A stretch of 64,000 nucleotides of DNA from a virus. The position numbers and the translations under genes were made by a program. Below, piece after piece: positions 21,533-31,242 of this stretch. Numbering within the stretch: the stretch's first letter is position 1; each line of letters opens with the position of its first letter. The stretch lies in IMG/VR virus record IMGVR_UViG_3300020190_005317. One strand, written 5' to 3'. Below the pieces are notes generated by a model. That model was not told where the DNA came from and made no database searches. It saw nothing but the letters and a program-made list of their open reading frames with translations.

Positions 21533-22395
21533 TCAAATTTTTAAACATATTGTCCCAAGTTCTTACTGAAGCTAAAAGATATAGATTTACACCTGAGACT
21601 TTAGATAGAATCAACAAAATTGTTGATAGGTTATGGAGTGATAGAAAAAAAGATTATCAAAGAAGAAAGGAATTTGTTGGTATCATTCCTATAAAATTAG
21701 CTAACGGAGTTGATGGATTGGTCAGAGTTTACGTTAATCCAAGACTTAGTTATATCGGTTCTATGGATTCCAAACCTTCAAAATCAATTGACCCAGCCGA
21801 CATAATTATTGAAGTCAATCCGAAATTCTACGAATCAAAGAAAAATCTTTATCTTACCGTTTACCACGAGCTTTTACATGCCAGTGACCCAACCCAAAGT
21901 GTGAATTGGTCACCTAAGTACGAGATGGGTTACGATCAAACGACTGATGAAAAATATTGGGGACATCCCATTGAATTTTTTGCGATATCAAATGAATTCT
22001 TAGAGGGACTTGTAAATGAATTTAAAAGAAGAGTTGAAAGATTCTCGATTAAGGATAATTCTAAATCACTACACAAATCCCTACAAAATATATTGAACTA
22101 TTTTGCAAAGAATGAACCCCTAACAAAACAATCCTTAAATATTATACAAAGAATTAACGATGAAAATATAGGATCAAACAGATTATCTCAAACTATAGCT
22201 GATATACAAACAGATTTTCCTAATACTTCAGATATTTTTCCACCATTGTTTGAAGATGAACCATATTATCTTTATTATGTACAAATGATAAAACAATATA
22301 ATCCTGAAATTTGGAAGAAATTATTATCCATGTTATACACAACATCAAAGGAAATTGAAGAAATAATCGACACAAAAAAAAGGGGTTTAAAATAA
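21508..22395 (+). CDS. HExxH motif protein (putative zinc metallopeptidase-like)
   Basis: [11 protein letters not shown] contains HExxH. It overlaps the upstream gene by 25 nt, suggesting an operon. Confidence 0.4.
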
Positions 22396-22412
22396 CCCCT
22401 TTTCTTTTGCCT
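22372..22412. terminator. Bidirectional hairpin terminator overlapping the stop codons of convergent genes
   Basis: AAAAGGGGTT-taaaat-AACCCCTTTT: a 10-bp perfect stem with A-run and T-run flanks. It covers the 3' ends of 21508..22395 (+) and 22387..25173 (-). Confidence 0.5.
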
Positions 22413-28096: not shown

Positions 28097-31000
28097 TAAC
28101 TAAGTAAATTTTCTAATTCTTCGATCTTTTTATTTATGTCATCGATAAATATTTGTTGTGCTTTTATACCTTCCACAACCACTGCATTTAATTTTGGATA
28201 GTTGATTTTATAATATCCATCATTCAAATCTATTTCCACCACCTCCGGCAGGATTTTCTCAACTTCTTGAGCGATAAAACCAAGAGAGTGTTTTTTTTCC
28301 TTTGGATATCCCGCCTTTAATTTATAGAAAGTCTCATTCCAATCGAATTCAACAGGCTCAAGTTTCAAAATTATATCCAATGCGTTAGCTATATCTTGAA
28401 TCTCTGTCTTTATTTTTTTATCTGAGCAGCTACTTTGATAAGTCTGTATACCACCTGCCCCTACTACGTAACAATCATTAGAATATTCAAAAAAGTCGTA
28501 GAATATTACCTTCGAATGGTTACCATTGTTGGCTTGACAATCAGCATTATCGGCATATTGATAGTTCCCATCTAATGGAAGTTGAGAGTAAAAAGTCACG
28601 GGATTTAATGGAAAATTACAAGCCGTATAACAACTGTGACCACTACCCTTATAAAAACTATAACAAGTTACACCCCCTGGTGGACCTTGAGGTCCCGTTG
28701 GACCTGTTGGTCCCGTTGGACCAGTTGGTCCTTGGGGTCCTTGTGATCCTCCACCACCCTGTGAACCTCGGTTACCAGTTGGACCTGTTGGACCGGTGGG
28801 CCCAGTTGGTCCTGTATTACCCGTCGCTCCTACATTTCCCGTTCCACCAGCACTACCTGTATTTCCTGTAGGTCCTGTGTCACCTGTTGGTCCTGTGGGT
28901 CCTGTGGGTCCAGCAGGACCTTGTGGTCCTTGAGGTCCCGTTGGACCCGTAGGTCCGGCATTACCTTGTGGGCCTTGTGGTCCTGTTGGTCCAGCAGCAC
29001 CTTGTGGTCCTGTTGGTCCAGCAGCACCTTGTGGTCCTGTTGGTCCTGTGTTTCCTGACGGACCTGGCGGTCCTGCTGGCCCCTGTGGTCCAACATTACC
29101 GGTTCTTCCCAATGGTCCTTGTGGTCCTGTTTCACCAGCATTACCTTGTGGTCCTTGAGGTCCTGTTGGTCCAGTGGGTCCTGTATCTCCGATTCCTCCT
29201 GTCCCTCCTTGTGGACCTTGAAATCCTTGAGGTCCTTGAGGTCCTGTATCACCTGCTGTACCTTGTGGACCTGTTGGTCCAGTAGGTCCAGTTGGTCCTG
29301 TATCACCAATTCCTCCTTGTGGTCCTTGTGGCCCTTGAGGTCCTTGAGGTCCTGTTGGACCTGTATCACCTGCTGCACCTTGTGGACCTGTTGGTCCAGT
29401 AGGTCCAGTTGGTCCTGTATCACCAATTCCTCCTTGTGGTCCTTGTGGCCCTTGAGGTCCTTGAGGTCCTGTTGGACCTGTTTCACCAGCTACACCTTGT
29501 GGACCTGTTGCTCCAGTAGGTCCAGTTGGCCCTGTATCACCAATTCCTCCTGTTGCTCCTTGTGGCCCTTGAGGTCCTTGAGGTCCTGTTGGACCTGTAT
29601 CACCTGCTGCACCTTGTGGACCTGTTGCACCGGTAGGTCCAGTTGGTCCTGTGTCGCCTATTGCTCCTGTAAATCCTTGTGGACCTTGAGGTCCTTGTGG
29701 ACCTATGGGTCCAGTTGGTCCAGTAGGACCTTGTGGTCCTTGAAATCCCGTTGGTCCTGTTGGTCCTGTATCACCAATTCCTCCTGTTGCTCCTTGGGGT
29801 CCAATAGCTCCTTGAGGTCCTGTTGGACCTGTTTCACCTGCTGCACCTTGTGGACCTGTTGCACCGGTAGGTCCAGTTGGTCCTGTGTCGCCTATGGCTC
29901 CTGTTGCTCCTTGTGGACCTTGAGGTCCTTGTGGACCTATGGGTCCAGTTGGTCCAGTAGGACCTTGTGGTCCTTGAAATCCCGTTGGCCCTGTTGGTCC
30001 TGTATCACCAATTCCTCCTGTTGCTCCTTGGGGTCCAATAGGTCCTTGAGGTCCTGTTGGACCTGTTTCGCCAGCTACACCCTGTGGTCCTATTGCTCCT
30101 TGAGGTCCAGTGGGTCCTGTATCTCCTATCGCTCCTGTGGAACCTGTTGGTCCTATGTATCCTTGTGGACCTATAGGTCCGGCTGGTCCTTGTGGACCTT
30201 GTGGTCCTTGATGTCCCGTTGGTCCTGTTGGTCCTGTGTCGCCTATTGCTCCTGTAGGACCTTGTGGCCCTTGAGGTCCTTGTGGACCTATGGGTCCAGT
30301 TGGTCCAGTAGGACCTTGTGGTCCTTGAAATCCCGTTGGTCCTGTTGGTCCTGTGTCGCCTATTGCTCCTGTAGGACCTTGTGGCCCTTGAGGTCCTTGA
30401 GGTCCCGTTGGACCTGTTTCACCTGCCACACCCTGTGGTCCTATTGCTCCTTGAGGTCCGGTTGGTCCTGTGTCACCTATTGCTCCTGTAGGACCTTGAG
30501 GTCCAATGTATCCTTGTGGACCTATAGGTCCGGCTGGTCCTTGTGGACCTTGTGGTCCTTGAGATCCCGTTGGTCCAGTTGGTCCTGTATCACCAATTCC
30601 TCCTGTTGCTCCTTGGGGTCCAATAGGTCCTTTAGGTCCTGTTGGACCTGTTTCACCTGCTACACCCTGTGGTCCAATCGCTCCTTGAGGTCCAGTAGGT
30701 CCTGTATCTCCTATAAAACCTTGTGGTCCTGGAAAACCAGTTGATCCTTTAGGACCTTGAGGTCCTGTTGGTCCTTGTGGGCCTTGAGGGCCTTGAGGTC
30801 CTGTTGGTCCTTGTGGACCTGTTTCACCAGCTACACCTTGAGGGCCTTGATAACCCCCAAATCCTGTGTCTCCTATCTGACCAGGCGATCCTGTTGGGCC
30901 TTGCGGACCTTGTGATCCTTGTGATCCTGAAAATCCTGGAAATCCCGGTGCTCCTTTGAGACCAGCCTGTGGTCCGATCCAATTCAATGTACTATTTGCG

Positions 31001-31242
31001 AACTGAACTCCTCCGACACTTCCGAAGTTTGTTATATTGATTGGACGGGTTGGTAAATTCACTTGCCCCGCACTCGGTTTGAGTTCAATGGTACCACCTA
31101 CTGTATTTCCTGATAGTGTGATTGTGGCTCCTGAAGACACTTTCCACTCCTGTGTTTGGTTCGAGGTGTCAGTATAATATATGAAGGGTAGTTTTGAAGG
31201 TTGATTACCTCTACTTGGAACTATCAGAATGTTTTTGGGCAT
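28096..31242 (-). CDS. Collagen-like tail fibre protein with Cys-rich tip and C-terminal intramolecular chaperone domain
   Basis: N-terminal domain [13 protein letters not shown], then about 820 aa of G-X-Y. A Cys-rich module ([20 protein letters not shown]...CYVVGAGG) precedes [13 protein letters not shown]...[16 protein letters not shown]. Confidence 0.85.

Follow-up and report, generated by a model that had tools for sequence, protein, structure and literature searches.

Three overlapping collagen-S74 genes of a large uncultivated freshwater phage: possible strands of one heterotrimeric collagen fibre

The virus record IMGVR_UViG_3300020190_005317 of IMG/VR, whose 64,000 nucleotides (nt) were analysed as a whole and are referred to as the window, carries on its minus strand three consecutive open reading frames (ORFs) for giant collagen-like proteins, which we call A, B and C in the order of their transcription. 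We consider it somewhat more probable than improbable that each of A, B and C supplies one strand to a common heterotrimeric collagen fibre of about 255 triplets with a single hypervariable knob. The predicted length of such a fibre is approximately 220 nm (0.286 nm per residue). The original prediction, made from the letters of the DNA alone, had seen three separate tail fibres in this operon. However, the chains are co-linear, charge-complementary and matched in length in register, and one fibre fits better. We arrive at this reading because the triplet numbers become equal only when the missing glycines of C are counted, because the charges of A and B complement each other at a constant offset of +2 columns with a defined direction, and because the repeats of the three genes evolved in a mirrored fashion. 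The translational coupling of the genes, the lack of a distal domain in B and C and the monomer-like knob of A point to the same conclusion.

All three proteins consist of a short N-terminal domain, a long collagen region and a C-terminal Peptidase_S74 domain. The Pfam family Collagen (PF01391) scores above its curated cut-off in A, B and C (E-values from 4e-42 to 6e-102), and Peptidase_S74 (PF13884) exceeds its curated cut-off of 22 bits in all of them (Table 1). The collagen regions had been described as 750-820 amino acids (aa) of G-X-Y. This holds for A (765 aa) and B (762 aa), which are unbroken, but not for C, where 724 aa are interrupted 35 times by a single missing glycine, leaving 218 triplets in 36 runs. 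Without exception, these 35 interruptions have the form G-x-y-x-y-G (GPSPQG, GASPTG and similar), and there are two of them per 37-aa unit. The chains also differ in composition: the collagen region of A has 26 Asp/Glu versus 5 Lys/Arg and Pro at 60% of its X positions, that of B 30 Lys/Arg versus 3 Asp/Glu and that of C 29 Lys/Arg versus 5 Asp/Glu. Lysine at Y (X-Lys-Gly) occurs 27 times in B, 17 times in C and three times in A. A is net acidic, B and C are basic, and none of the chains has a partner for salt bridges within itself.

The S74 domains make up the final 109-118 aa and follow the collagen directly in B and C and the knob in A. Their motifs are SDKKIK...GFIAQE in A, SDQRLK...GYIAQE in B and SDSKLK...GFVAQE in C, so that the pattern SD(x)(R/K)LK...GF(I/V)AQE given earlier holds with small deviations in A (SDKKIK) and B (GYIAQE). 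Ser, Asp and Lys(+5) of S-D-x-x-x-K do not vary among 31 homologues, and no orthologue lacks them. The S74 domain of A matches a long tail fibre distal subunit (PDB 6f45_A, E=1.7e-6, with SD..IK aligned), and S74 matches to the C-termini of tail-fibre PHROGs reach E-values down to 3e-24. These results support the view that the three C-termini are intramolecular chaperones of the S74 type, in which the Ser/Lys(+5) dyad is conserved and for which autocleavage is predicted. Since the collagen of B and C abuts the cleavage Ser of S-D-x-[KR]-L-K in every orthologue (in the window, with GPP as the last triplet), these two chains would be left without any distal domain after the predicted cleavage.

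A Cys-rich distal module had been attributed to the third fibre only. It is indeed confined to the 1048-aa protein A (81 aa, six Cys), but the gene for this protein is third only by plus-strand coordinates and therefore first in transcription. The different receptor specificities that had been suggested for the three fibres find no basis in B and C, which lack a distal domain. In a comparison of eight close homologues, the identity amounts to 52% in the knob and to 95% in the S74 domain, and this hypervariability would be the usual signature of a receptor-binding tip. AlphaFold2 (AF2) predicts the knob as a monomer with pLDDT values of 77-88. No significant structural relative of the knob was found by Foldseek in the PDB and BFVD, where only short S74 pieces of Gp37-type fibres matched.

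The N-terminal domains (91-96 aa) are paralogous in A, B and C with 29-36% identity, and the alignments reveal M1, I5, I7, P9, I21, G59, W88 and G90 as invariant. Searches of Pfam, PHROGs, the PDB and GenBank phages yielded no match to this domain, and hence no homology of the supposed attachment domain to known baseplate or tail adaptors; the neighbourhood of the genes likewise revealed no tail gene module. A profile search returned 11 fragments of the same lineage as the only relatives, and the AF2 model of the N-terminal domain of A is unreliable (pLDDT 51). A location on the tail is a possibility suggested only by the S74 domains, which in known phages are found at the ends of tail fibres and spikes.

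Evidence for a joint triple helix comes from the register of the chains. For this analysis, the collagen regions were aligned at their C-terminal ends with zero shift, and one column was added per missing glycine in C. The 724 residues of C then occupy 759 columns, and the chains comprise 255 (A), 254 (B) and 253 (C) triplets. All 26 acidic residues of A, every one of them at X, are located two columns after a Lys or Arg of B at Y, and 24 of the 26 likewise follow a Lys or Arg of C. The basic residues of B and C sit in the same columns. Not all complementary sites belong to the periodic array: two are close to the N-terminal end, and a third lies approximately 100 residues past the end of the array. 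Zero shift ranks first among 509 triplet shifts (26 pairs; next best 19), whereas random placement yielded 2.9 A-B pairs on average and never more than 10 in 1e5 trials. Furthermore, all 12 Arg residues of C lie two columns before a Tyr or Phe of B, and the two Arg residues of B precede the two Tyr residues of A.

The step from Y to X' of the next triplet is the axial inter-chain contact that is used in designed ABC heterotrimers. Their composition and register are fixed by axial pairs of Lys and Asp, in which the chain that carries Lys leads the acidic one (PMC7824840, PMC9599227). When all 27 compositions and registers were scored, the order C (leading), B (middle), A (trailing) ranked highest, as it allows 30 salt bridges and 15 cation-pi pairs. 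The respective numbers for the homotrimers are 0 and 2 for AAA, 0 and 20 for BBB, and 0 and 2 for CCC. The inter-chain axial pairs would therefore disfavour homotrimers, though they are weak or lost in distant relatives that are poor in charges.

The arrays are also co-linear with respect to their units. Units with (Y) or without (N) a second charged site follow each other in the same order in A, B and C (Y N Y N N Y N Y N Y Y Y Y Y), and the unit-by-unit DNA identity matrices correlate between the genes (Mantel r 0.64-0.71, p<=1e-4). Units 7/9, units 8/10 and the block 11-13 are mutual closest relatives in A, B and C alike. The identity between units reaches 97-99% within one gene but only 51-56% between aligned units of different genes, and the terminal domains of the paralogues share only 29-38% identity compared to 49-81% between orthologues of other lineages. 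This indicates that the triplication of the genes is old, while the duplications of the units are young and took place in parallel in the three genes.

Frozen ancestry was considered as the only cause of this co-linearity and rejected, since the units are far more alike than the paralogues and since an independent lineage, L035 (71-81% identity in S74), has a different but matched order. In L035, B comprises 268 and C 267 triplets. The order of its units is unlike that in the window, yet B and C agree in 11 of 13 units, share a three-unit block duplication and carry a third unit subtype at matching positions; shift 0 is the best of 535. In a further relative, L044, the Lys residues of C meet an Asp of B in four of four cases and those of B an Asp of A in six of seven, which is the same C-B-A direction.

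When IMG/VR was scanned with the N-terminal alignment, ten phages of greater distance were added, with identities of 28-39% and contigs of up to 317 kb, and the trio is present in each of them. Overall, it is retained with matched lengths in eleven to thirteen related phages. In the ten distant phages, the A-type chain carries a knob with 6-10 Cys and an S74 domain, the knob being present on one chain only, the collagen of their B-type chain abuts SD[RK]RLK, and their third gene has a GTG start and overlapping ends. The collagen regions span 295-942 aa between the phages and are matched within a phage (for instance 295/305/295, 463/474/461, 475/483/475 and 918/942/908), as is the case in 9 of 11 complete trios. 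The spans of B and C correlate with r=0.996 (n=11) and those of A and B with 0.83; the latter value is lowered because two phages have a much longer A-type chain with an inserted globular domain. In these two (L100, positions 9998-13069; L105, positions 9241-12645), a non-collagen, Cys-containing domain of approximately 250 aa is inserted after a short first collagen stretch. The modules of L105 (9241-18050) are moreover permuted (N_A with C_B, N_C with the knob and C_A, N_B with C_C), one module of each type being nevertheless retained at each end, and this permutation points to recombination inside the collagen repeats between the paralogues.

Not only the trio but also its surroundings are conserved, as the neighbourhood unk550-x-thioredoxin-glutaredoxin-(p249)-A-B-C-(p295, p259, p338) is kept in all relatives. 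In the window, the genes immediately upstream of the trio encode thioredoxin and glutaredoxin (32099-32706, minus strand) and a 550-aa protein (33006-34658) that has no match anywhere; a divergent 249-aa gene (31357-32106) lies there as well. Their position is held in L044 and in L100-L109, down to 28% identity. These genes may help to form the disulfides of the Cys-rich knob, unless their constant position reflects no more than synteny of the backbone.

The repeats themselves are somewhat less uniform than first described. TRF detected approximately 13.7 copies per gene with 74-82% matches and periods of 117 bp in A, 117 bp with a 234-bp super-repeat in B, and 111 bp in C, instead of the units of 117-120 bp that had been reported; the arrays are far beyond chance. 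The units had also been described as repeated almost exactly, which is correct locally, where a few adjacent units are 91-99% identical, but not overall, as the unit-to-unit DNA identity ranges from 50 to 99% with means of 71-74%. The longest exact direct repeats measure 105 nt in A, 95 nt in B and 125 nt in C.

The recombinational length variation that was expected from such repeats does occur, since near-identical strains differ by whole units at the longest exact repeats. Strains with 0-2 single-nucleotide polymorphisms across A, B and C show clean indels of -111, +117, -234, -234 and -333 nt. L095 lacks 111 nt in C (891 aa) and L096 has 117 additional nt in B (1015 aa), while in L097, a strain from the European Nucleotide Archive (ENA), B is shortened by 2 x 234 nt (820 aa) and C by 111 + 333 + 18 nt (774 aa). 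These variants were taken from assemblies of short reads, in which gene A is a frequent site of contig breaks. The contigs of L002, L003, L005, L006, L096 and L097 end there, and some of the ends loop back into the repeats; in L097, gene A is split over two contig ends that do so. As the collagen arrays fragment assemblies, copy numbers from short reads call for caution. The version of the repeats in the window recurs in at least four independent assemblies.

At the level of gene organization, the original description of three consecutive genes for 928, 976 and 1048 aa with overlaps of 8 nt and 1 nt is accurate. A and B start with ATG, and the start of B has one base in common with the stop codon of A (TAATG). 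C starts with GTG and overlaps B by 8 nt; this start is also chosen by the gene callers of public assemblies, and both the GTG and the overlap with B are kept in all orthologues. The conserved overlapping stop and start codons fit an equimolar synthesis of the three chains. On the minus strand between A, B and C there is no terminator-like site, except for one weak 5-bp stem inside A, whereas a terminator-like hairpin is present at the end of C (Table 1). The stretch upstream of A contains only weak sigma-70-like matches, and the phage encodes a sigma factor of its own. The G+C content rises from approximately 33% in the flanks to 45-49% across A, B and C. The overlapping genes and the terminal hairpin support the proposed operon, in that A, B and C are probably a co-transcribed and translationally coupled gene set that ends at the hairpin.

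If A, B and C do form one fibre, its assembly could proceed as follows. The chains would be translated in a coupled 1:1:1 fashion, and the three paralogous S74 domains would unite the three different chains and define their register. Zipping of the triple helix would then follow in the order C (leading), B (middle), A (trailing). The register would be held by axial pairs, which B would form through Lys/Arg (Y) with Asp/Glu (X) of A and through Tyr/Phe (or Asp) with Arg (or Lys) of C. Afterwards, every S74 domain would cleave itself off at its Ser. The paralogous N-terminal domains of the three chains would form a mixed trimer and thereby attach the mature fibre to the virion, and the tip of the fibre would be the single disulfide-rich, fast-evolving knob of A, which would bind the host. 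The periodic missing glycines of C might provide regularly spaced flexible points, and the length of the fibre would shift by gain or loss of 39-residue units, with selection keeping the three genes in step.

Several points weigh against one heterotrimeric fibre. To our knowledge, S74 chaperone domains are known as homotrimers only. Prokaryotic collagens, too, have been reported only as homotrimers (PMC8968730). The 81-aa knob of A stands between collagen and S74 and has no counterpart in B and C, so that the three S74 domains would start at unequal levels. A chain with 35 missing glycines that faces two unbroken chains would be strained. The lengths of the chains are not always equal either: there are one-unit mismatches in L095 (254/240 triplets), L096 (267/253) and L046 (144/155), and the A-type chains of L100 and L105 are approximately 250-330 aa longer than their partners. 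The C-anchored register is lost in L097 owing to indels of 18 and 27 nt within the uncharged C-terminal part, and the subtype orders of B and C differ at four units. The mismatches in L095, L096, L046 and L097 may be tolerated variants or errors of short-read assembly. In addition, the KGY and QGF motifs of B are self-complementary, which makes a B homotrimer plausible. The distant relatives are poor in charged residues, and the charge code is thus not universal. Finally, the match of Lys columns with Asp/Glu columns could be partly inherited from an ancestral KGD motif.

Alternatively, A, B and C may form three separate homotrimeric fibres A3, B3 and C3, each folded by its own S74 domain, that attach to like sites through their paralogous N-terminal domains and are subject to selection for equal length only. 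We regard this as a serious possibility but as clearly less probable than one joint fibre. Each gene is a complete unit of N-domain, shaft and chaperone, the S74 domains match tail-fibre ends, and S74 domains as well as the characterised collagens of prokaryotes and phages are all homotrimeric (PMC8968730); A3 and C3, however, would have essentially no stabilising axial pairs and approximately 60-70 net like charges per trimer, and C3 would carry 35 triple interruptions. B has the self-complementary motifs KGY and QGF and, in L044, KGD, and the knob of A is placed between collagen and S74 as in an ordinary trimeric tip, yet mature B3 and C3 would be bare collagen rods without a binding domain. 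One-unit mismatches in some assemblies also speak for separate fibres. Selection on equal length nevertheless does not explain why C matches by triplets (253 versus 254 and 255) with its missing glycines counted and not by residues, nor why the order of the subtypes is identical and lineage-specific block duplications are mirrored between the genes, nor why 26 of 26 acidic residues of A stand at exactly +2 of a basic residue of B.

It is improbable, though worth considering, that the complementarity acts between homotrimers that lie side by side in register, with acidic A3 zipped electrostatically onto basic B3 and C3 in a nine-chain bundle. The opposite net charges, the axial coincidence of the charged bands throughout the array and the matched lengths in all relatives would suit such a bundle. 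However, lateral packing follows physical length, and C is 38 residues shorter than B, so that the bands would drift by approximately 0.6 nm per unit and be nearly one full unit off by the end of the array. A constant offset of +2 columns and a C-B-A direction would be meaningless in a bundle, and the trio is retained in distant relatives that are almost without charges. 

It is very improbable that the collagens are not host-recognition fibres of the tail and instead decorate the capsid or neck ('hair') or are non-virion proteins exported during infection. In favour of this, neither the window nor the conserved neighbourhood revealed a recognisable gene for tail, baseplate or capsid, the N-terminal domain is without known relatives, and one PHROG with an S74 end is classed under head and packaging. 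Against it, almost all of 400 GenBank phage records with an S74 domain annotate it as part of a tail fibre, tail spike or baseplate, the hypervariability of the knob is typical of receptor-binding tips, and no signal peptide is evident by eye at the N termini.

A possible extension of the one-fibre reading concerns lysine modification, as each of the three enzymes that make hydroxylysine-linked Glc-Gal in animals has a homologue encoded in the window. A 920-aa protein matches COLGALT1 (PDB 9evj, E=1e-38), the glucosyltransferase of LH3 (6fxk, E=1e-55) and mimivirus R699 (9dyt, E=2e-43). A 208-aa protein spans a whole lysyl-hydroxylase domain with the Fe/2-oxoglutarate (2OG) ligands HxD...H...R (HHD, H, R) aligned, and is similar to the catalytic domain of human LH3 (residues 502-713, E=4e-25) and to mimivirus L230 (6ax6, E=2e-21). 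The latter is the only characterised viral precedent that we found in the literature (PMC9614988). The X-Lys-Gly sites of B and C (27 and 17) are candidate substrates of these enzymes. In the relatives, neither the glycosyltransferase nor the lysyl-hydroxylase gene was found within 10-kb flanks of the trio, and a functional link by synteny is therefore not supported. A second 2OG-oxygenase-like fragment is encoded by a 69-aa ORF at 63718-63927.

The source of the window is a large uncultivated bacteriophage from freshwater. The phage origin assumed at first is borne out by a sigma-70 factor, an N-acetylmuramoyl-L-alanine amidase (Amidase_2), SbcCD, one tRNA (tRNA-Met) and matches to PHROGs, and the best, albeit weak, matches of the proteins are to 'huge phage' records of 480-735 kb. 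Matches to PLOD-GT/GT25, DnaJ, LRR and MORN prompted us to consider an origin from a giant (mimivirus-like) virus as well. It was rejected because of the sigma-70 factor, Amidase_2, SbcCD, the PHROG matches, the conserved GTG start, the overlapping genes and the huge-phage relatives. Among 50,697 GenBank phage records, neither megablast with 15 kb of flanking DNA nor tblastn with the N-terminal domain, unk550 and p338 gave a match. Exact-protein look-ups revealed the same locus in several lake metagenomes of the JGI (Ga01941xx series) and in one ENA assembly. The JGI samples are probably from Lake Tanganyika. With regard to the host, a scan of genome contigs gave only distant S74 matches in unrelated metagenome-assembled genomes. 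A Shine-Dalgarno core within 20 nt upstream is present in 1 of the 43 window genes with an ATG start. Several small proteins of the window (e.g. that at 52250-52696) have lipoprotein- or Bacteroidota-style signal peptides. The rarity of Shine-Dalgarno cores and the style of the signal peptides are hints of a host in which initiation is not led by Shine-Dalgarno sequences. Only the rarity of these cores suggests that the host may be of the Bacteroidota type.

Table 1. Features of the collagen gene trio and of the putative lysine-modifying enzymes in the window
Feature	Position	Strand	Basis or remark
Gene A, acidic collagen chain, the only one with a distal knob	28096..31242	-	ORF; Pfam Collagen and Peptidase_S74; residue counts
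A, N-terminal domain (aa 1-93)	30964..31242	-	Alignments with the N-terminal domains of B and C
A, collagen (aa 94-858), 255 unbroken G-X-Y triplets, 39-aa (117-bp) unit	28669..30963	-	
A, distal knob (aa 859-939), 81 aa, 6 Cys	28426..28668	-	Hypervariable among homologues
A, Peptidase_S74 domain (aa 940-1048), Ser940/Lys945	28099..28425	-	Pfam 58.5 bits; PDB 6f45_A
Gene B, basic collagen chain	25166..28096	-	ORF; Pfam; residue counts
B, collagen (aa 97-858), 254 unbroken triplets, 39-aa unit, 78-aa super-unit	25523..27808	-	
B, Peptidase_S74 domain (aa 859-976), Ser859/Lys864	25169..25522	-	Pfam 33.4 bits; SDQRLK
Gene C, basic collagen chain with periodic missing Gly	22387..25173	-	ORF; Pfam
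C, collagen (aa 92-815), 37-aa (111-bp) unit = 13 triplets minus two Gly	22729..24900	-	
C, Peptidase_S74 domain (aa 816-928), Ser816/Lys821	22390..22728	-	Pfam 44.1 bits; SDSKLK
Bidirectional terminator-like hairpin, AAAAGGGGTT-loop-AACCCCTTTT	22378..22403	both	Palindrome at the convergent meeting of C with the plus-strand gene 21508-22395
AT-rich 114-nt intergenic stretch 5' of A	31243..31356	-	Presumed promoter region of the operon, predicted
920-aa protein with COLGALT1-like (GT25), LH3-type glucosyltransferase and methyltransferase domains	34655..37417	-	Pfam, PDB
208-aa stand-alone collagen lysyl-hydroxylase-like 2OG-Fe(II) oxygenase	63111..63737	-	Pfam, PDB

Some other genes of the window deserve mention. 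Two ORFs on the minus strand that lie 56 kb apart (558-1022, 154 aa; 56788-57285, 165 aa) are clearly paralogous by eye; both read ...TIP.VKVNQDS...FYGSFDTTVKGKRVTV... and neither has a family match. Accessory genes that are unusual for a phage encode a cobalamin adenosyltransferase (9301-9840), an APS-kinase-like P-loop protein (14449-14889), an SPFH/Band-7 protein (6190-6747), a PspC-domain protein (49409-49624), a T4 endoV-like pyrimidine-dimer glycosylase (50998-51507) and a UvrC-like GIY-YIG nuclease (54488-55756). There are also a full-length DnaJ (40238-41164) and two DNA methyltransferases. A second glycosyltransferase (15728-16654, minus strand; phrog_2644, with a weak GT11 fucosyltransferase-like match) is encoded 6 kb downstream of the operon, beyond a convergent gene block.

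If the one-fibre reading is true, heterotrimeric collagen is not an animal invention, and nature uses the axial charge-pair code that chemists established on synthetic peptides. A compact system of bacterial type, with three genes and registration domains that remove themselves, could make it feasible to produce heterotrimeric collagens of defined composition recombinantly, a practical problem that reviews regard as unsolved (PMC8968730). The fibre would also represent a new phage fibre design, in which a single monomeric knob sits on a 220-nm heterotrimeric rod, as well as a clear case of coupled repeat evolution, with three genes gaining and losing units jointly. Even in the case of separate homotrimers, a trio with matched lengths is conserved across a clade of uncultivated large phages, and natural variation in repeat number is documented. 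As to the more far-reaching proposal of a true ABC heterotrimeric collagen in a phage, the first natural one outside animals, with an axial-pair code, nucleation by S74 domains in the manner of a disposable C-propeptide, lock-step length and possibly Glc-Gal-hydroxylysine, we see the chances as evenly balanced.

The S74 domains of A, B and C resemble those of known fibres and spikes, such as the K1F endosialidase, the L-shaped fibre pb1 of T5 and gp37 of the S16/T4 type, in that a C-terminal domain of approximately 110 aa with Ser...Lys(+5) follows a trimeric fibrous shaft. The known examples are reportedly homotrimeric. In contrast to them, the shaft here is collagen and not a beta-helix, three paralogous S74 domains are located on three co-evolving chains, and two of these chains have nothing but collagen before the cleavage site. 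The parts as such are ordinary. That tail fibres of phages may contain collagen motifs is no recent discovery (PMC4621102), and the fusion of collagen and S74 is common in polinton-like viruses and phages (PMC12220804). The collagen-S74 proteins of phages, virophages and polinton-like viruses show the same two-domain fusion as A, B and C; however, they are encoded by single genes and contain one or two short collagen stretches, compared to 253-255 triplets in three register-matched genes of a conserved trio. With the bacterial collagens Scl1/Scl2 and BclA and the prophage protein EPclA, the trio shares G-X-Y without an obvious need for prolyl hydroxylation and a polymorphism in repeat number, and A is rich in GPT/GPQ, as BclA presumably is. 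Those proteins, however, have been reported as homotrimers (PMC8968730), are much shorter and have no complementary partition of charges between paralogues.

A three-chain arrangement of a collagen fibre has hitherto been reported from animals only, and our literature search found no report of a heterotrimeric collagen from a phage or bacterium. Animal heterotrimeric collagens such as C1q and designed ABC heterotrimers have, like the trio, distinct chains with equal numbers of triplets and interruptions in some chains only. The A, B and C chains of C1q are encoded by three adjacent genes. The designed heterotrimers also have the axial Lys(Y)-Asp/Glu(X') and cation-pi pairs (PMC7824840, PMC9599227). 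Unlike the animal collagens, to which there is no homology outside G-X-Y, the trio possesses self-cleaving S74 domains in place of C1q, NC1 or C-propeptide domains, and its heterotrimer is inferred. Mimivirus is likewise a virus with both collagen-like proteins and homologues of lysine-modifying enzymes (L230, R699), but in the present case the host is a bacterium, the hydroxylase is a separate protein of 208 aa, and the transferase joins COLGALT1-like and LH3-GT-like domains. Compared with all these systems, what is new here is the conserved and coupled trio, the complementarity at the level of the register, the lock-step evolution of the repeats and, as the probable consequence, a heterotrimeric collagen that is not from an animal.

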